A stretch of DNA of 64,000 nt, taken from an uncultured Alphaproteobacteria bacterium (GTDB lineage Bacteria; Pseudomonadota; Alphaproteobacteria; JALCBB01). This document shows, in pieces, positions 9,868-19,019 of the stretch; positions within the stretch are counted from its first letter, which is position 1, and the number at the start of each line of letters is the position of its first letter. The DNA lies in assembly GCA_958267355.1 (NCBI GenBank), contig OY279575.1, positions 540,335 to 604,334 of the forward strand. Reading direction: 5' to 3'. The position numbers were made by a program, and so were the translations under genes. The notes under the pieces are model-generated. The model was not told where the DNA came from and made no database searches. It worked only from the letters and a program-made list of their open reading frames with translations.

Positions 9868-9952
9868 GCGGCTGTGGCGGAACTGGTAGACGCGCAAGAT
9901 TCAGGTTCTTGTGGGAGCTAATCCCGTGGAGGTTCAAGTCCTCTCAGCCGCA
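9868..9952 (+). tRNA. tRNA-Leu (anticodon CAG)
   Basis: Acceptor stem GCGGCTG/CAGCCGC, anticodon loop tTCAGgt, long variable arm, T-arm GGTTCAAGTCC, discriminator A. Confidence 0.85.
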
Positions 9953-10441
9953 CACCCCTTGCGGGGCGGCGTCAATGCCAGCCCTTGTATTCCCCACCAA
10001 CTGTTAAGCCCCATAGTTTTAGTAACGGGTTAATTGAGCCAATACCCCTTTGCGGGGGGAGCGTGAGATTAGGGGGATTAACTGGCTCCCATTTTTGAGA
10101 CGAAGCCCTATAAAGGCTTAACCCACCAGTAAGACGAAGACGGGAGAAATAGCGGCTTGCCCTGCAGGGGGCGAAGCCCCCGCAGGGTTTGCGCGATTGA
10201 GCGCAAACCGCGGGAGATTAACCTTAATGGAACTGCCCACGCCGTAGCTCGTCCGAAGGTACCGCGAAAACGGAGTTTTCGCGGTACGCGCACGGCGAGA
10301 TGCGGCAAATAGCCCGCGCAAGCGGGCGGATTAAATGTTGCGAGAAAGCCCAACCCTAACCCCTTCTTTTTCGGATTAGGAATAAGGGTAATTAGAAGAC
10401 GGGCGAGATGCGGCAACTAGCCTGTATAGGTGCTTTGCGAT
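9953..10441. repeat. mosaic of dispersed repeat elements (left flank of island)
   Basis: Segments recur at 15250-15460 in direct orientation (e.g. ccccttgcggggggagcgtgagattagggggattaactggctccc) and at 14868-14940 in inverted orientation (tttgagacgaagccctataaaggcttaacccaccagtaagacgaagacggg). Confidence 0.8.
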
Positions 10442-11365
10442 CTATCTATCGCGGTTTCTTTTGTGGGCAAGAATGTTCAGCTTTTCTCGGTAGATTGCAA
10501 CAGAGTGATCTTTAAGAAACTTTTTTATCGTTTTTCCTTTTATAAAGATTGCAAGACGCCTTTCCCACGAAACCTTGTAGGTTAACTCTACTTCATCATA
10601 TCGGTTTGGCTTGCAGCTGGTTAAAAATCTTTCGTCTCCGACATGGAAGTAATCTTCAAAGTGGCCGAGATATTTCACAAACTTTCCGACAACAGGAACC
10701 AGCCCTAAGCAAAATTTTATTTTCTGCATCGTCTCCTTGCCAGGAGGTAACATCGTCACGCAATCAATTGCATTGACAACTCTGTAAATCGGCGTCTTGA
10801 TGGCGTACGACCAAGCTTCGTCTCCCACGCGTGGAGCTCCAAAGGTATAGCAAGCGGCAACGCCGCCTTGATGGTTTAATCTTTTTGCGGCGATCGTGGC
10901 TAAAGCTCCGCCTATGCCGTGTCCTGTTATCAATAGGGGCTTGTGGGCAAATGGCTCTTTGTTCAGGCTCGTTTGAATTGCGCTGGCAATTTGTTCGTAG
11001 GCTTCTTTAAAGCCAGCATGCACGCCGCCATTGGTTTCGCAGGAAACTTTGCGAGCGTTTGCTTCTGTTTTTATATCTTTGAAGCGTTTGGCTTTGTGTC
11101 CTTTGAATGCGAGTATTAGTAAGGTGTTGTTTGAAACGAGCAGGGCTTCGGTTCCGTTGGTATCGTATTTTTGTTCTACGGATAGTCCGATCTTTTCGAT
11201 TTCGGCATCTACTTCGTCAAAAGGCATGTAGGCAAGCTCGGACAGGTGCGCCATTAGCCAAGCGATGCGGTCGCTATATCCTTGCCGATAGGTTGGGAGC
11301 TGGTTGCTTTGGATATAATCCACCAGCAGGGCTTTTTTATCTTCGCTACTTGAAGGCTTGCTCAT
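10442..11365 (-). CDS. class-3 (fungal-type) lipase family protein
   Basis: Nucleophile-elbow pentapeptide GHGIG (in ITGHGIGGALA), Lipase_3-like context, AT-rich codon usage. Start at ATG 11365 (MSKPSSSEDKK). Confidence 0.75.
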   Translation of the reverse strand: MSKPSSSEDKKALLVDYIQSNQLPTYRQGYSDRIAWLMAHLSELAYMPFDEVDAEIEKIGLSVEQKYDTNGTEALLVSNNTLLILAFKGHKAKRFKDIKTEANARKVSCETNGGVHAGFKEAYEQIASAIQTSLNKEPFAHKPLLITGHGIGGALATIAAKRLNHQGGVAACYTFGAPRVGDEAWSYAIKTPIYRVVNAIDCVTMLPPGKETMQKIKFCLGLVPVVGKFVKYLGHFEDYFHVGDERFLTSCKPNRYDEVELTYKVSWERRLAIFIKGKTIKKFLKDHSVAIYREKLNILAHKRNRDR

Positions 11366-11461
11366 GGTTCTGACTTCCTTGAGACTTGTTCCGTGCGGAG
11401 TGCATTCTACCACAGCGTGAAGGCGTGGCAGTTGCAGGGGCGAAACGTGTCGGCTGTTCTT

Positions 11462-14260
11462 CTACCTGCGGGTTTTGAAGGGGATATAAAGCCCACCTGC
11501 TACGCCATGGGCGGTTTTGCCTCGCTCAATGGAGCCACAGCTAGAGCTTGCGTAGCAGACTTTGCCTCCTGCGAAGTGGGCGGCATAGCCCGACAGGGTG
11601 AAACGGGTGCCTTGAGCCGTGGAGAAGCCTAAAGCCGCCTGTACACCCCGCTCGGTGCCTGTGAGCGAGCGTAAAAGCGAGCCTGTGCCATGAACCGAAG
11701 CCTGTGTTTGCCAGGCGGTCAGGCTGACTTGCGACACGGGGCGTAGTGTGGCGGTGAAGCGCAGGTTTTCGCTACGGGCGAAGGAAAAGCCTTGGCTTCC
11801 CTGCGAGCCGAAGAAGCCATCGGAAGAAAAGCGTGTGGCGGCGACTTGCCAGCGGATTCCTGCGTGATGACCTGCAATAGCGGCTCCGCTTTCGCCTGTC
11901 TTCTCGGAGACCAAGCCGAGCCGTGTTTTGTCCTGCTTTGTGCCAGTGAGCGGCAGAAAAGCCCGCGCCGAAGGCGGAGTCGGCGCATACGCCACCTGTC
12001 CCTGCGGATTGTAGCCAAAGAAGCGGCTTTCGCCTTCGGGTGCAATTGCCAACTTGCCGTTGCTCTGGGCGGGTAGGGAGAGTCCGCCGAACTGCCGCCC
12101 ATAGAAAGCACTCAAAAAGCGAGTTGCGACTCCGCTTGCCCCCGCAGGAGCTGACCGAGTCGCCTTAGCCACTTCTTTTGCGGTTTCGTCTGCGGCACAC
12201 CACAAATCAAATCGCCCACGGCCTGTGTCTTTGTCTAGCCCGACGGCTCCGATATCCACGGAGCATTTATCAAAGATTGCCATAGCATCGCTGGCGGTGG
12301 CGGAAGCGGGCAGGTGTTCCCAGATCATGGTAAAGGCAGAAATGGCACCGCTAGAAGACGAGAAAGAAGTGCCGCCATGAAATTCGCTATTGTCTTTCGC
12401 GTTCATTAGCTTGTAGCGGTAGGGAAAGCCCACGCACCATTTTTCTACGCCTTCACAGCCGTTTGCCCTGTATCTTCCTCTATGGTCTTCTGTGAGTCCG
12501 TAGATGAATCGCACCCGCTCGCTTGTGTCGGCGATATACTTTTGGTTACGCATACCGCCTTGCATATAGGTATCGTCTTGGTCGGGAGAGTCTAGGTTAC
12601 TATTTCCTGTGCCTACGAAGATATAGGGGCCAGCGGGTTGGTTGGTGTTGGTGTTAAAAATATCTCCGAGCTGAATTCCGTGCTTTGAGAAGATGCGGGC
12701 AGTGGCAATGGAGACAACGCCATCGGTGGGTAACGCATTATAGAGTGGCGGTATGTTGTAGGTTGAAAAATTGCCGACTCTATACCGCCCACTGAGTCCG
12801 TCGTTTGCGTCTTTTGGCAGGAGTCGTTTTGCTAGGTTGGTGACTTGATATCCGTGGGTGGTTTTTGTCGCGGGGTTTGGAATGGGACTGTAATAGAAGT
12901 TTTGCCGAGAGATATCTTCGTGATCATGGAAGCTCACATTCAATCCGCCGTTATCCATAATGAAGATACCGCTACGCTTGGTGCGCTGTGCCTTTGTAAG
13001 CCCGTGGTCGCGGAAGACTTGAGCCAGACAGCTTTCTTCATTGCCGTTTAGGTTTTCGCCGATTTGGCAGGTAACGGTTTTGTATCCTTCGGTTCTTTCT
13101 GCGGCACACCAGAGGTCAAACCGCCCGCGGCCTGTGCTTTCGTCTAATCCTGTTGTGCCGAGATCTACGGCACAGCTATCAAAAATTGACATTGCATCGC
13201 TGGCGGTGGCGGAAGCGGGCAGGTGTTCCCAAATCATCGTAAAGGCGGTAAGGGCTCCGCTTGAGGTGGAGATAGAAGAGCCACCAAAAGTCCTTCCCTT
13301 GACCTTGTACTCATCAGGAAAGCCCACGCACCATTTTTCTACGCCCTTGCATCCGTTGGTTCTGGATCGTGCTGTTTGTGCTTGGTTGAGTCCATAGATG
13401 AAGCGCACCCTGTCGCTTCGCATGGCGACGAGTTCTTGATTGCGTATTCCGACTCCTGAGCGTGTGTAGCCGTTATCTTGGTCAGGAGTCATAACACTGC
13501 CATTATTTCCTGTCGGAGCAAAAATGTAAGGCCCCATAGCTTGTTTTGTGACGCTGTCAAAAACATCGGCGACTCCGATACCGCTTCGTTGGAAAAGCAA
13601 ACCATAGGCAATGGCAACTGCACCATTCGTGGGCAGGTTATTGTAAACCACTCGGAACTGGGCTGAAGATGGCGTAGAAGAAGTTATGTAATGCCCCTTG
13701 AAGCCTTTTGTGGCTGGGCTACGACTATCTTTAGGAAGCAACGCATCGGCAACTGTGGTGACTTGGTGTGCGTGAAGATTTGAAGCTGGATTGCTAACAA
13801 TTTGATCGCTGGTTTGAACATCCGTTTTAACACCAAGGAGCGTTTCCGTGTATGTATTTTGAGTGCCTTGACTTGGGTTTCCGCCATTGTCAACGAGGAA
13901 AATATTGTCGCGCTTGGTGCGTGTGAGTTTTCGCCCTTCGCGGAAAGTGCGCGTGAGGCAACTTTCTGTGCCTGTGTCTAAGTCTTGTCCGTTTTGACAA
14001 GCCAGGACTTGCGCCTGTGTAAGTGCCACAGGCGTGCCCACACCCGTGCCAGGCGTAGGAGGCGTAACCACAGGCGGGTCTTGTGGGTCAGGGTCAGGGT
14101 CTGGGTCTGGGTCAGGCTGGGTAACAGGCGCACCGCCACCACCACCGCCGCCACCGCCACCTCCACCACAGGCAACAAGCGGCACAGTAAGTAGCAAAGA
14201 AAGCAACAAGACAACAAAAACACAGAAACCCCGCACGGAAACAAGCCCCGCCCCACTCAT
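11462..14260 (-). CDS. lipoprotein with two tandem S8 (subtilase)-like domains and autotransporter-like C-terminal region
   Basis: Lipobox LVAC followed by a G12 tract and PDPDPDPDPDPQDP linker. Two ~275-aa tandem repeats each carry D (F[L/I][VM]DNGG), H (HAHQV / HGYQV) and S (GSSISTSSG / GTSFSSSSG) subtilase-like motifs. C-terminal ~250 aa show an alternating beta-strand pattern like an autotransporter beta domain. Confidence 0.6.
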   Translation of the reverse strand: MSGAGLVSVRGFCVFVVLLLSLLLTVPLVACGGGGGGGGGGGGAPVTQPDPDPDPDPDPQDPPVVTPPTPGTGVGTPVALTQAQVLACQNGQDLDTGTESCLTRTFREGRKLTRTKRDNIFLVDNGGNPSQGTQNTYTETLLGVKTDVQTSDQIVSNPASNLHAHQVTTVADALLPKDSRSPATKGFKGHYITSSTPSSAQFRVVYNNLPTNGAVAIAYGLLFQRSGIGVADVFDSVTKQAMGPYIFAPTGNNGSVMTPDQDNGYTRSGVGIRNQELVAMRSDRVRFIYGLNQAQTARSRTNGCKGVEKWCVGFPDEYKVKGRTFGGSSISTSSGALTAFTMIWEHLPASATASDAMSIFDSCAVDLGTTGLDESTGRGRFDLWCAAERTEGYKTVTCQIGENLNGNEESCLAQVFRDHGLTKAQRTKRSGIFIMDNGGLNVSFHDHEDISRQNFYYSPIPNPATKTTHGYQVTNLAKRLLPKDANDGLSGRYRVGNFSTYNIPPLYNALPTDGVVSIATARIFSKHGIQLGDIFNTNTNQPAGPYIFVGTGNSNLDSPDQDDTYMQGGMRNQKYIADTSERVRFIYGLTEDHRGRYRANGCEGVEKWCVGFPYRYKLMNAKDNSEFHGGTSFSSSSGAISAFTMIWEHLPASATASDAMAIFDKCSVDIGAVGLDKDTGRGRFDLWCAADETAKEVAKATRSAPAGASGVATRFLSAFYGRQFGGLSLPAQSNGKLAIAPEGESRFFGYNPQGQVAYAPTPPSARAFLPLTGTKQDKTRLGLVSEKTGESGAAIAGHHAGIRWQVAATRFSSDGFFGSQGSQGFSFARSENLRFTATLRPVSQVSLTAWQTQASVHGTGSLLRSLTGTERGVQAALGFSTAQGTRFTLSGYAAHFAGGKVCYASSSCGSIERGKTAHGVAGGLYIPFKTRR

Positions 14261-14481
14261 CCAGCGATTGCCTTCTAGTTGCACGGATTATCCTCCACCA
14301 CCAACCCAATAATAGCCCATCCTACACCCCCACAGAACAAGCCTGTAATAATCGCAAGCAAACCCAAAGTGGGTTATATTAAGTCCCAGCGGAGGCATTA
14401 GCCAACGTTAATGCGGTGACGCACACCGCCACTTCGTGGTGGCGCACGTCGCCGCTCAGCGGTGGCTGACGCCACCGCTTC

Positions 14482-14567
14482 GCGGTTGTGGCGGAATGGT
14501 AGACGCGCAGCGTTGAGGGCGCTGTGGAGGCAACTCCGTGGAGGTTCAAGTCCTCTCAACCGCACCA
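14482..14567 (+). tRNA. tRNA-Leu (anticodon GAG)
   Basis: Acceptor GCGGTTG/CAACCGC, anticodon loop tTGAGgg, long variable arm, T-arm GGTTCAAGTCC, encoded CCA. Confidence 0.85.
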
Positions 14568-15706
14568 TTGTTACGGCGGCTTGCGCCGCCTTTGGGCGCA
14601 TCTGGCTTGCTATCCGCGTCCTACGGACGCGATACGCAAGACCACCTGCGCCTGTGGGCAGTTCCACCACCCTTGTTCTTCACGGGCGTTTCACGCCCTA
14701 CTTAAACAAACGGGCTTCACAAACTTCATACTTACCGTTCGGCCCGCTGGCTAAAACGCCAGCGGGCACTTTGGCGTGTTGTTACATCCGCTCGCGTTCG
14801 TGCCCTACGGGCACTCGGTGGCTAAAGCCGCCACTTCGTGGTGGGTCTTCATCTCTAAAGTCGGGAAAGGGCAAGCCGCTATTTCCCCGTCTTCGTCTTA
14901 CTGGTGGGTTAAGCCTTTATAGGGCTTCATCTCAAAGTTAATCTGTGCCTTCCCCATCTTTACAGTACCCTGATTTCTAAGCCGCAGAAAAATGGGTAAG
15001 TGTTGGGCTTTCTCGCAACATTTTTTACGCACGCTTGCGCGGGCTTTGGGCGCATCTGGCTTGCTATCCGCGTCCTACGGACGCGATACGCAAGACCACC
15101 TGCGCCTGTGGGCAGTTCCACCACCCTTGTTCTTCACGGGCGTTTCACGCCCTACTTAACTGACGGGCTTCACAAGCTTCACACATACCGTATGTCCCGC
15201 TGGCTAAAACGCCAGCGGGACACTTGGCAGTGCGGCATTCGTGCCAGCCCTTGTTTCCCCCACCAGCTGTTAAGCCCCATAGTTTTAGTGACGGGTTAAT
15301 TGAGCCGATACCCCTTGCGGGGGGAGCGTGAGATTAGGGGGATTAACTGGCTCCCGTTATGGAGATGAAGACGGGAGAAGTAGCGGCTTGCCCCTTTGCG
15401 GGGGGAGCGTGAGATTAGTGGGATTAACTGGCTCCCGTTATGGAGATGAAGACCCACCGAGCACCCGTAGGGTGCGAACGCGAGCGTAGCGGAGTGAAAC
15501 GAGCGGAGCGAAGCGGACACCGCGTAGCGGCGGCTTTAGCCACCGCGAAGCATCTTGCGCGTAGCGCAAGGCTTCGCGGCACTAGGCGGCGTAAGCCGCC
15601 GTAACTTAAACAGTGAGAGAAAGTCCGCCCCTAACCCCTTTTTCTGCGGCTCAGAAATCAGGGTAGTAAGAAGACAGGAGGATAACGGCTTACTCGCGGG
15701 TTAGAT
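14568..15706. repeat. repeat-rich non-coding region (right flank of island), direct and inverted repeat mosaic
   Basis: A ~117-bp perfect direct repeat at 14589-14705 and 15044-15160, extending with mismatches to about 200 bp. Inverted copies of 9953-10441 elements. Palindromic pairs at 14795-14860 versus 15455-15500. Six-frame ORFs here are not protein-like. Confidence 0.8.
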
Positions 15707-16321
15707 TCAAGCAGTCTTGCGGACATAAGCGCGGGAGCGGTGTTCAGGGCAGTAGGGACTGTCTTCAGTCGCTGGCGATCCGCAAAAGTGAAAATCAGGA
15801 GTCTTCGGAGTACCCATCGGCCATTGACACGGCCTGCCACCAGTCCGCACAACAGGCACCTGCTCCGCACCAGACTTCTTCGCCACAGAAGCACTAGAAG
15901 CACCACCAGAAGCACCACCAGAAACCCGCGGACGAAACGCCGCCACTTCCTGACCACCCTTGCCACCAGTGCCACCAGCACCACCAGCTCCAGCCTTAGC
16001 CTTCGCGCCACTCGCACCACCACGAGCATTACGTAAGCTCTGCTCCGCTTCTTGAGCGCGAAGCGAAACCCATTCCTCGCCCGCCGCCCTAGCGTTGCTG
16101 CCATGGGAATCACCCCCACGCCTGCTAGGAGGACTCAAAGCCACTCCAGCCCCAGCACTGCCCCCCGTGTTGCCAGGCACAGCCCGCGCCAAGCCCAAAC
16201 GATGCGCCTTGCCAATCACCGCATTCTTGCTATATCCCAAACGCTCGCCAATCTGGCTCGTGGTCAAACCACTGCCCCAGAGCTCCTTGAGTTCAGAAAC
16301 TTTTTCTTCAGTCCAAGCCAT
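15707..16321 (-). CDS. gcrA: cell-cycle transcriptional regulator GcrA
   Basis: N-terminus MAWTEEKVSELKELWGSGLTTSQIGERLG, Gly/Ala-rich linker, C-terminus CQWPMG...FHFCG...YCPEHR. Start at ATG 16321. Confidence 0.88.
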   Translation of the reverse strand: MAWTEEKVSELKELWGSGLTTSQIGERLGYSKNAVIGKAHRLGLARAVPGNTGGSAGAGVALSPPSRRGGDSHGSNARAAGEEWVSLRAQEAEQSLRNARGGASGAKAKAGAGGAGGTGGKGGQEVAAFRPRVSGGASGGASSASVAKKSGAEQVPVVRTGGRPCQWPMGTPKTPDFHFCGSPATEDSPYCPEHRSRAYVRKTA

Positions 16322-16613
16322 AGTCAGGTCTCTCCAATATCTAGTGCCAGCGATACCTTCGCTGACCAAGTATAGAAGCGATTCGCCACAGCGCATCACA
16401 ACAGCACAACATATTGGGGGAAATCTAACGAATTCCCCAAAAGAGTTTTCTCCCCGTTCCACAAACTGTGGAAAGTCATCCAGTAAATGAACCACCACCA
16501 GCCAAAATAAAACAAAACACGAATCAAATCCTACAAAAACAAATTCACAAACCACAATAAACACCGAAAATATATAAACTTTCAGATTCTTCTTAGATTA
16601 TTACCAGATTCTT

Positions 16614-17930
16614 CTAAGAAATCCGCCGCGAACCCTCGCGCACAAGCTTTTCCAACGCCTCACGCAAGCCAGAAGCAGGAAAACCCTTCAAAATCATATC
16701 CGCTTCAGCCAATAAGCCACTCGCCTCCCCACGAACCATATCACCCACCCCATGCCGCACCAGCAAAGCTTGAGCTAGCTTTAAATTGTCCTTCATAGAC
16801 GCTGTATTGCTCCGTGAAGGCGATTCGTTTGATTCAGGGTGTTGTGGTGCATCTTCGCCACTTTGCTCGCCCACAGCGGCTTTCTGGAAGGCTTTGTGAG
16901 TGGCTTTCTGGATGGCTTTATGGGGGGCTTTGTGAGTGGCTTTCTGGTGGGCTTCGTGAGTGGCTTTATGGGTAGCTTTGTGAGCGGCTTTCTGACCTTC
17001 GCCTGATTGCTCGCCTTCATCGCTTCGCTCACCCCCGCTGGCTCGCCCAATCGCCACAGAATCCGCCAACACAGGGCTATTTCCCTGATTGCTCTCCTCC
17101 ACCAGAACCCGATGCCAAAAAGCCCGCTCAGAATCATCTCCCGCCTGCCACGCAAGCCACACAGGCAAAGTCATCCGCCCATCACGCAAGTCATCGCCCG
17201 CCGCCTTGCCCGTAACCGCACTTCCGCCTTCGTAATCAAGCAAATCATCCACCATCTGGAAGGCAAGCCCAATCGCTTGCCCAAATTCCGCCATCGCCGC
17301 CCGCTTGCTACCCACAGGCGGCTCAGCCAAGTTTTCAGGCTCCACCAAACAAGCCCCCGCTTCACAAGCCGCCGAGAATAAAGCCGCAGTCTTACCCTCC
17401 ATCACGGCAATGATTTCAGCCCGCGTCAGGTCGGTGCGGCGGGTTGTCCGTAGCCCCAGCATCTCACCTTCAGACACAGTAATCGCCGCCCGCGCCAAAA
17501 CCTGCAACGCCGACGGACAGCCAACTTCAACAATCAAACCAAATGCCCGTCCAAGCAAAAAATCACCCGTCAAAACACTCGCCTTGTTGCCCCAGACAAC
17601 ATTGGCGGCAGGCTGTCCGCGGCGGAGCGCACCCAGATCCACCACATCATCGTGCAGTAAAGTCGCAGAGTGCATAAGCTCCACAGCCGCCGCCAGCTTG
17701 TGCGCCTTAGGTAGCTCGTCAGGCGGAGTCCCACACAAGTGCGCCGCCGCACAAGTCAGCAACGGACGTAACCGCTTGCCCTCCGCGTCTAGCAGGTGTC
17801 CCGCAATTTCAGACACCAGCGGCACATGCGAAGCTACCTGCTGGCGCAAAATGTCAGCCACGGCTTCAGTATCAGGGGCAAGCCGCTCGGCAAGTCCTGC
17901 GGTGTTGCGGATTGTTTGCGGGTTCTGCAT
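16614..17930 (-). CDS. ispB: polyprenyl diphosphate synthase (IspB-like) with in-frame repeat insertion
   Basis: First aspartate-rich motif LLHDDVVD, second DDxxD motif FQMVDDLLD, and the substrate-binding Lys-Arg-Leu-Arg motif EGKRLRP. About 90-aa low-complexity insertion (HKATHKATHEAHQKATHKAPHK...) encoded by tandem ~30-bp repeats at 16880-17000. Confidence 0.82.
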   Translation of the reverse strand: MQNPQTIRNTAGLAERLAPDTEAVADILRQQVASHVPLVSEIAGHLLDAEGKRLRPLLTCAAAHLCGTPPDELPKAHKLAAAVELMHSATLLHDDVVDLGALRRGQPAANVVWGNKASVLTGDFLLGRAFGLIVEVGCPSALQVLARAAITVSEGEMLGLRTTRRTDLTRAEIIAVMEGKTAALFSAACEAGACLVEPENLAEPPVGSKRAAMAEFGQAIGLAFQMVDDLLDYEGGSAVTGKAAGDDLRDGRMTLPVWLAWQAGDDSERAFWHRVLVEESNQGNSPVLADSVAIGRASGGERSDEGEQSGEGQKAAHKATHKATHEAHQKATHKAPHKAIQKATHKAFQKAAVGEQSGEDAPQHPESNESPSRSNTASMKDNLKLAQALLVRHGVGDMVRGEASGLLAEADMILKGFPASGLREALEKLVREGSRRIS

Positions 17931-18092: not shown

Positions 18093-19019
18093 GTGGCAGA
18101 AGTCGCCAAGCCAGTAGGCACCTTTCAGGAGATGATCTTCCGCCTAGAGCAATTCTGGGCAGGGCACGGCTGTGTGGTCTTGCGTGGCTACGACAAAGAA
18201 ATGGGGGCAGGGACTTTTCATCCCGCAACTGCGCTTTATGCTTTGGGGCCGTACAATCCGTGGCGTTGTGCTTATGTTCAGCCGTCTCGCCGTCCGACCG
18301 ATGGGCGGTATGGAGAAAATCCGCATCGCCTACAACGCTACTATCAGTTTCAGGTCTTGCTAAAGCCCGCTCCTGAAGACTCGCGAGAGCTTTACGAAGC
18401 AAGCCTAGCGTATCTTGGCTTAGATAAACGCCGCCACGATTTTCAATACGCCGAAGACGATTGGGAGAGTCCAACTCTGGGGGCTACAGGGCTTGGCTGG
18501 GAAGTCCGTTGCGATGGGCTAGAAATCACCCAGTTCACCTACTTTCAAAAGATGGGCGGGATTGAATGTAATCCGCCATCGGTAGAGCTTACCTACGGAC
18601 TAGAGCGTATCGCCAGCATTGTGCAAGAACGCGATAGCGTTTATGACCTAGCGTGGAACAAAGACTTCACCTATGGCGAAGTTCATCACCAAGTGGAAAT
18701 AGACTTCAGCAAGTACAACTTTGAACAGGCTGACCTAGAAGCCTTACGCCACGACTTTGACCAAGCCGAAGCCAGCGTCAAGCAGATGCTAGACAGGTTT
18801 GACTCAGCCGAAGCCGAATTCGCCGAAGTGCTAAGGGGTGAAGCTGTGCTAGCGGCTTACGACAAGTGCCTTGAAGCTTCGCATCTGTTTAATCTTCTTG
18901 ACGCACGGGGCGCGATATCTCCACAGGTAAGGCAGGAGATGATCTTGCGCGTGCGCAAGCTTGTCACGCGGGTTTGCCAAGCCTGGAAGGGTCAAGTAGG
19001 AGCACAAGACAATGGCTGA
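18093..19019 (+). CDS. glyQ: glycine--tRNA ligase alpha subunit
   Basis: [18 protein letters not shown]...[21 protein letters not shown]...YYQFQV, conserved across the protein. Confidence 0.95.
   Translation: [308 protein letters not shown]

Follow-up and report, generated by a model that had tools for sequence, protein, structure and literature searches.

A predicted lipoprotein with two tandem subtilase-like domains and a C-terminal β-barrel in an uncultured alphaproteobacterium

What kind of protein carries two protease-like domains in tandem between a lipoprotein signal and a β-rich tail? This question is raised by a gene located in a stretch of 64,000 nucleotides (nt) of DNA from an uncultured Alphaproteobacteria bacterium (GenBank assembly GCA_958267355.1, contig OY279575.1, positions 540,335 to 604,334 of the forward strand); the whole stretch is called the window in the following, and coordinates refer to it unless a homologue locus is named. 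The gene is an intact single open reading frame (ORF) on the minus strand, at positions 11462-14284, encoding 940 amino acids (aa). Our analysis suggests, with moderate confidence, that the 940-aa protein is an outer-membrane lipoprotein protease in which two subtilase heads are combined with a barrel and which uses a surface mechanism like that of NalP and SphB1.

Layout of the gene and age of its internal duplication

The GTG codon at 14284 is the likely start, being preceded by GGAGGA at a distance of 6 nt and equivalent to the GTG with which the orthologue P0001 begins. A preliminary description of this DNA had placed the gene at 11462-14260; the lower end was confirmed, but 14260 corresponds to an internal ATG that is less likely to be the start. 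From its N-terminus the protein consists of a signal peptide with a lipobox, a tract of 12 glycines (Gly12), a tether of (PD)n and proline, two homologous units, and a β-rich tail. The features of the gene, of its N-terminal region, and of the DNA repeat are the following.

11462..14284, minus strand: complete coding sequence from the ORF list and its translation, 940 aa from GTG 14284, stop codon at 11462-11464
14291..14296, minus strand: Shine-Dalgarno-like GGAGGA, seen in the sequence itself 6 nt before the GTG start codon
14171..14284, minus strand: lipoprotein signal peptide, aa 1-38, with basic n-region, hydrophobic core FCVFVVLLLSLLLTVP and lipobox L-V-A-C, presumably lipidated
14168..14170, minus strand: lipobox Cys39, the predicted acylated mature N-terminus, with Gly as the +2 residue
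14132..14167, minus strand: Gly12 tract
14030..14131, minus strand: flexible tether, (PD)n and Pro/Thr-rich, aa 52-85
12181..12377, no strand assigned: best-conserved DNA repeat, domain 2 copy, 79% identical to 13090-13286, with a 27-mer at 12302
13090..13286, no strand assigned: best-conserved DNA repeat, domain 1 copy, with the 27-mer at 13211

A basic n-region, a hydrophobic core, and a lipobox, as found in substrates of signal peptidase II, are all present (FCVFVVLLLSLLLTVPLVA-CGGG; lipobox pattern applied, [LVI][ASTVI][GAS]C), and a lipobox cysteine followed by poly-Gly also occurs in about 20 members of the family described below. To judge from this sequence context, Cys39 would be acylated. 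The lipobox, the Gly12 tract, and the PD linker had already been reported in the preliminary description, and all three were recovered (LVAC at Cys39, 12 Gly, PDPDPDPDPDP); the sequence following Gly12 reads APVTQ(PD)5PQDPPVVTPPTPGTG. In the signal region of P0001 an additional lipobox-like 'FVACGGG' is found ahead of the real lipobox.

The two units, aa 86-402 and aa 403-705, share 48% identity over 320 columns (E=3e-87), and at the DNA level the repeat has a period of 909 nt. The tandem duplication that had been described is therefore real, but its units measure about 305-317 aa instead of the proposed ~275 aa. The 27-mers quoted as examples of near-identical DNA occur exactly at 12302 and 13211; near-identity is nevertheless an overstatement, as the best stretch covers 197 nt at 79% identity and the units as a whole are 61% identical in nucleotides. 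Over their first ~200 codons, the units agree in about 0.4-0.5 of the amino acids and in 0.23-0.53 (mostly 0.3-0.45) of the third positions, the latter being nearly saturated; over the last ~100 codons these values are 0.6-0.87 and 0.57-0.73, respectively. P0001, which is 89% identical to the 940-aa protein, has both domains, with 93% identity between the first domains and 96% between the second domains, and domain 1, domain 2, and the single domain of the relative P0002 are roughly equidistant at 47-50%. Because two thirds of the unit length is nearly saturated at third positions, both domains are present in P0001, and the P0002 domain is equidistant, the sequence comparison indicates that the duplication is old and not recent as had been thought. 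The 3' third of the units appears to be either strongly constrained or partly homogenised.

Synonymous divergence (dS) from P0001 (locus L002, 8001-10853) varies along the gene: the two protease domains have values of about 0.13, the barrel has 0.36, and the signal and linker region has 0.32. This unevenness suggests recombination or differing histories of its parts.

Two divergent subtilase-like domains

Each unit contains an Asp-His-Ser triad and an asparagine in the position of the oxyanion hole, which are encoded at the following positions.

13079..14029, minus strand: subtilase-like domain 1, aa 86-402, with D132, H171, N260 and S337 and Cys pairs 96/109, 312/319 and 371/393
12170..13078, minus strand: subtilase-like domain 2, aa 403-705, with D444, H477, N561 and S640 and Cys pairs 406/419, 610/617 and 674/696
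13889..13891, minus strand: codon of predicted catalytic Asp132, domain 1
13772..13774, minus strand: codon of predicted catalytic His171, domain 1
13505..13507, minus strand: codon of predicted oxyanion-hole Asn260, domain 1
13274..13276, minus strand: codon of predicted catalytic Ser337, domain 1, in GGS-S-IS
12953..12955, minus strand: codon of predicted catalytic Asp444, domain 2
12854..12856, minus strand: codon of predicted catalytic His477, domain 2
12602..12604, minus strand: codon of predicted oxyanion-hole Asn561, domain 2
12365..12367, minus strand: codon of predicted catalytic Ser640, domain 2, in GGT-S-FS

The triad-like motifs noticed in the preliminary description, with their atypical serine motifs GGSSISTSSG and GGTSFSSSSG, are thus both present. 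The features of S8 peptidases (clan SB) found in the domains are a predicted subtilisin-type α/β fold and the order Asp-His-Ser, with the oxyanion-hole Asn between His and Ser. The successive spacings Asp-His, His-Asn, and Asn-Ser are 39/89/77 in domain 1 and 33/84/79 in domain 2, compared with 32/91/66 in subtilisin BPN'. According to DSSP assignments in the model, Asp lies at the end of a strand, His at the N-terminus of a helix, Asn just after a strand, and Ser at the N-terminus of a helix; this placement of the catalytic residues is that of the canonical subtilisin topology. In an hhalign comparison of the family with BPN', the four catalytic positions were in register (FIM-D-NGG with AVI-D32-SGI, TT-H-GYQV with NS-H64-GTHV, GTG-N-S with AAG-N155-E, and GGT-S-FS with NGT-S221-MA; local mode, low mact, E=0.012), an alignment that serves as supporting evidence only. 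The best Foldseek match of the protease domain was the autotransporter subtilase Ssp (E=1.7e-7). The Pfam subtilase model PF00082 is matched by 7 of the 26 aligned family members, with a best E of 3.2e-18, so that membership of the 940-aa protein is transitive only; among the relatives, P0008 matches the family at E=1.7e-61 and scores 32.5 bits against PF00082, where the gathering cut-off is 21.8. Five independent lines from sequence and modelling identify the domains as a predicted, very divergent subtilase fold (S8, clan SB).

D, H, N, and S are invariant in both domains of the 940-aa protein, in both P0001 domains, and in P0002. The four positions were tabulated in 96 domain copies across the family: D/H/N/S is kept in every domain of P0008 and of the P0001/P0002 clade, to which the 940-aa protein belongs, and P0028 and P0037 have E/H/N/S. 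Long multi-domain relatives usually have 0, 1, or 2 intact domains among several degenerate copies (1/5 in each of P0005 and P0006, 2/5 in P0003, 0/5 in P0004). Near-canonical serine motifs are found in P0037 (GTSFAAPYA) and P0008 (GTSYATPYV). The ratio of non-synonymous to synonymous substitution rates (dN/dS) between the gene and its orthologue P0001 is 0.26 overall and, by the Nei-Gojobori method, 0.28 for domain 1, 0.18 for domain 2, and 0.22 for the tail, showing that selection maintains all three modules. Judged by these sequence features, both domains are very probably active proteases.

A predicted β-barrel tail and the proposed mechanism

The tail (aa 706-940, ~235 aa) is rich in Ala, Gly, Ser, and Thr and is divided into a linker and a barrel.

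12086..12169, minus strand: linker, aa 706-733, with the conserved helix VATRFLSAFYGRQFG directly before the barrel, from DSSP of both models and the family alignment
11465..12085, minus strand: predicted C-terminal outer-membrane β-barrel, aa 734-940, with ~12 β-segments

In the family, the helix before the barrel has the consensus DDFAQxLF..LGxLxLPG. Modelled alone from an alignment of 23 sequences, the tail gave two helices followed by ~12 β-segments with long hairpins, at a predicted local distance difference test (pLDDT) of 89.6 and a predicted template modelling score (pTM) of 0.80. Most family members end in SYSF, SYEF, or SYQF, and this near-invariant terminal Phe aligns with Phe936 of the sequence YIPF, which is followed by KTRR. 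The models indicate that the tail is a predicted outer-membrane β-barrel, autotransporter-like in fold and logic and not in family. All cysteines of the putative passenger are in close pairs, 7-22 residues apart, and closely spaced pairs are tolerated by autotransporter export. LptD is encoded within the window; the host is therefore diderm. The pre-barrel helix, the terminal Phe, the close Cys pairs, and the diderm host fit a type V-like mechanism.

Group 15 subtilisin-like autotransporters have a protease subdomain of ~400 aa on a β-helix of ~200 aa, and of their members, NalP and SphB1 stay on the cell surface through a lipid attached to the N-terminus (PMC9289746); in SphB1, the lipidated cysteine is the anchor in the outer leaflet (PMC13421274). 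A lipidated protease autotransporter is therefore not in itself the unusual architecture that the preliminary description had taken it for, since NalP and SphB1 are already lipidated (PMC9289746, PMC13421274), but the tandem catalytic domains are unusual indeed. The 940-aa protein shares the lipobox, the subtilase, and the C-terminal barrel with NalP of Neisseria meningitidis and SphB1 of Bordetella pertussis. It differs from them in having two tandem catalytic domains instead of one, in lacking the ~200-aa β-helix stalk, in a protease domain too divergent for Pfam S8, and in a shorter barrel (~206 aa, compared with ~250-280 aa) without sequence relation to PF03797, the Pfam family of autotransporter β-domains. 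In place of the single ~400-aa S8A head on a β-helical stalk that characterises Group 15, two domains of ~305 aa were found. To our knowledge, all lipidated subtilase autotransporters described so far combine a single protease head with a β-helix stalk and a PF03797 barrel. A literature search for bacterial polypeptides that contain subtilase domains in tandem or in duplicate returned nothing relevant.

With the passengers of two other Group 15 autotransporters, Ssp of Serratia marcescens (PDB 8e7f) and fusolisin of Fusobacterium (PDB 8axg), sequence identity is only 13-16%; these proteins are non-lipidated and have one protease domain on a β-helix or with extra domains, whereas the 940-aa protein has compact ~300-aa domains with three Cys pairs each. 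Generic S8 enzymes (PF00082; BPN', Apa1, SUB1, SubA) have the same α/β fold, the same order and spacing of catalytic residues, and the same secondary-structure placement as the 940-aa protein, which differs from them in having no recognisable propeptide, in lacking Pro225/His226 (GTSFSSSSG or GSSISTSSG), and in scoring below the Pfam threshold. The tail resembles the type Va β-domain (PF03797) in its C-terminal position, its predicted pre-barrel helix, the terminal aromatic residue of the family, and its predicted overall barrel fold, but HMM and profile-profile comparisons revealed no similarity, and in the clade of the 940-aa protein a short basic extension follows the terminal Phe. In sum, the 940-aa protein most plausibly works like NalP and SphB1, by analogy with them; it departs from that group in having no PF03797 barrel, no β-helix stalk, and more than one protease head. 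What is new, in a rare, unannotated, and unnamed family, is that the heads are in tandem, that the stalk is missing, and that the barrel is unclassified.

We propose the following mechanism. The signal peptide of the signal-peptidase-II type (LVA-C) would direct export and N-terminal acylation of Cys39, and the Gly12 and (PD)n/Pro sequence, next after the lipid anchor, would serve as a flexible tether. Two divergent subtilase domains of ~305 aa in tandem, each with a predicted Asp-His-Ser triad and oxyanion-hole Asn, would be followed by the short conserved helix and by the C-terminal β-barrel of ~206 aa, which would be inserted in the outer membrane. Together with the β-barrel assembly machinery (BAM), the barrel may carry or anchor the protease modules at the cell surface, where the N-terminal lipid would retain them. 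There, the domains would work as serine endopeptidases, cleaving proteins of the surface, secreted proteins, or proteins from the environment.

Several observations weigh against the proposed surface protease. The membrane side of the protease modules is one that we infer by analogy. Scans of the 940-aa protein against Pfam and NCBIfam yielded no S8 match, even at E<=10, the only match being that of its low-complexity, Gly/Pro-rich N-terminus to a fusolisin model; PDB sequence searches with the protein, the domain profile, and the tail profile gave nothing useful. The preliminary description had counted a lack of significant S8 or autotransporter hidden Markov model (HMM) matches as a refutation, and no significant match was obtained; for S8, this yardstick is too strict. 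The loop between Asp and His of the predicted triad was modelled at a pLDDT below 50, and the serine motif lacks the usual Pro and His (GTSFSSSSG, compared with GTSMAxPHV). With regard to the tail, PF03797 was matched neither by the 940-aa protein nor by 26+23 relatives, NCBIfam gave no match of any kind for the tail in the relatives, and PDB sequences gave none. An hhalign comparison of the tail family with eight PF03797-positive β-domains (Ag43, YfaL, and six plasmid autotransporters) gave a probability of 1% and E=0.056 over 54 out-of-register columns, and the fold score of the tail against autotransporter translocators was no better than against unrelated barrels. The autotransporter-like tail of the preliminary description thus survives as a β-barrel resemblance at the level of the fold but not as membership in PF03797. 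In addition, the clade of the 940-aa protein has 2-6 extra residues past the terminal Phe, and domain 2 and the barrel are separated by ~30 residues of helical linker, with no β-helix stalk.

Alternatively, the barrel could be only an anchor and no translocator, with the subtilase domains located in the periplasm, tethered to the inner face of the outer membrane by lipid and barrel, and acting on periplasmic or envelope proteins. We regard this as unlikely: as in type Va autotransporters, the barrel is immediately preceded by a conserved helix, Foldseek ranks an autotransporter passenger as the closest structural match of the protease domain, and the close Cys pairs are of the kind that export-compatible passengers need. 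The long Gly/Pro tether also suits surface display, and exactly the same three elements, a lipobox, a subtilase, and a C-terminal barrel, are joined in the surface-exposed proteins NalP and SphB1 (PMC9289746, PMC13421274).

The preliminary description had further suggested that one or both domains are catalytically dead and function as binding or scaffold modules, which the atypical serine motif, the failure of Pfam to recognise the protein, and the presence of the pseudoprotease CspC among the structural neighbours would favour. Most tandem domains of the distant relatives have indeed lost D, H, N, and/or S, so that the fold tolerates catalytic loss, and for many of these domains the pseudo-protease idea holds. 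For the 940-aa protein it is improbable, as D, H, N, and S are kept without exception by its two domains, P0001, and P0002 and align in register with subtilisin, both domains are under purifying selection (dN/dS 0.28 and 0.18), and the near-canonical relatives P0037 and P0008 connect its clade to active-type subtilases. Finally, missing database annotation and the label 'hypothetical protein' on deposited relatives could point to a chance ORF, a pseudogene, or an assembly artefact behind the repeat. The ORF of 940 codons is intact, however, and both AlphaFold models are confident; the 89% identical two-domain orthologue in an independent long-read assembly, the divergence of the units (61% DNA identity, which is incompatible with an assembly duplication), and the overall dN/dS of 0.26 effectively refute this explanation.

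Family, surroundings of the gene, and significance

An exhaustive profile search of 1.84 billion protein representatives yielded 53 relatives; for 28 of these, E was <=1e-30. A word-indexed search of 5.8 billion clusters returned at least 2-3 relatives in each of two runs and is no gauge of family size, since Gly/Pro low-complexity words probably crowd its list of 8000 candidates; a scan of GTDB genomes with the two most conserved peptides of the family, a method sensitive to close relatives only, found no relative. The recurring architecture is a lipobox Cys, poly-Gly, one to six domains, and a barrel. Distant relatives (P0003-P0053) have up to five or six modules, often with one intact amid dead ones. 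In two-domain proteins, the domains of one protein are nearest to each other (76% in P0037, 88% in P0028, 80% in P0008, and 50% in the 940-aa protein), a sequence pattern that points to repeated tandem duplication or, alternatively, to concerted evolution. Metagenome assemblies are the source of all family members; P0001, P0002, and P0037 are from the same ENA sample, P0001 and P0037 on contigs of 1.6-1.9 Mb and P0002 on a 17-kb contig. The few members deposited at NCBI are named 'hypothetical protein [Betaproteobacteria bacterium]'. It is possible, though we advance this tentatively, that the helix-plus-barrel tail of ~235 aa, unrelated to PF03797 in sequence, defines a new type V-like class of outer-membrane export or anchor modules, displaying tandem arrays of compact, disulfide-stapled subtilase modules on uncultured, mostly small-genome Proteobacteria; in such a class, with 1-6 modules, recurrent duplication, and many dead copies, the 940-aa protein would be a rare case with both heads active.

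The gene neighbourhood differs among the four homologue loci examined. At the P0037 locus, a convergent neighbour (L037, 8736-12158, minus strand) encodes 1141 aa matching Pfam Peptidase_S8 at E=1.8e-11, so that two subtilase genes are adjacent there. In the window, the subtilase gene is followed by a lipase gene.

10442-11413, minus strand: class-3 lipase gene, Pfam Lipase_3 E=2.6e-21, 48 nt downstream of the subtilase gene

The lipase has no obvious signal peptide, and a sigma-70-like site is found at 11431-11404. A functional link between the two genes is unsupported, as a lipase neighbour was found in 0 of the 4 homologue loci and the neighbours differ.

The lipase and tandem-subtilase genes lie between two tRNA-Leu genes (CAG, 9868-9953; GAG, 14482-14567). 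Shared repeat blocks follow each of these: 9954-10058 and 15220-15324 are direct repeats with 84% identity, as are 10331-10403 and 15606-15678 with 77%. Copies of a 62-nt element are located at 10046, 15311, and 15392, and its 22-nt core is found in the window only at these three sites; in addition, 10094-10144 and 14886-14936 form an inverted repeat that is 98% complementary. The repeats around the tRNA-Leu genes may represent an element similar to miniature inverted-repeat transposable elements or repetitive extragenic palindromes, or they may have been left by a segmental duplication or insertion. The possibility that the two tRNA-Leu genes enclose a mobile island was also weighed: the region has flanking repeats, but its guanine-plus-cytosine content is unremarkable. 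After tRNA-Leu(GAG), the ORF-poor intergenic region 14568-15228 contains a tandem duplication with a period of ~454 nt (14568-14705 and 15022-15159 are 96% identical, 14705-14775 and 15158-15228 83%), for which Rfam gave no family at gathering score.

Further along the window, the polyprenyl synthetase (IspB-like) ORF at 16614-17930 (minus strand) has a C-terminal low-complexity insertion with KATHKATHEAHQKATHKAPHKAIQKATHKAFQKA-type repeats, and its neighbour, the GcrA ORF at 15707-16324, has a Gly/Ala-rich insert; the presence of GcrA identifies the host as an alphaproteobacterium. The best matches of GlyQ (18093-19016, plus strand) are only 47-59% identical and come from mixed phyla, in a pattern-limited scan of 185,579 GTDB species representatives, which thus revealed no close sequenced relative of the host.

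Lipidated subtilase autotransporters of pathogens, NalP and SphB1 among them, have key roles as maturation proteases. The family of the 940-aa protein appears to follow their logic of lipid anchor, subtilase, and C-terminal barrel with different parts, namely a compact subtilase module that escapes Pfam and has been repeatedly tandem-duplicated, and a barrel that matches no existing model. If the barrel exports the modules, the definition of type V secretion would have to be widened, and a minimal translocator would become available for display engineering; if it does not, the family would represent periplasmic proteases of a new type, anchored in the outer membrane. Its members also form a natural gradation between active proteases and pseudo-protease arrays, and genes now annotated as 'hypothetical protein' could receive names.

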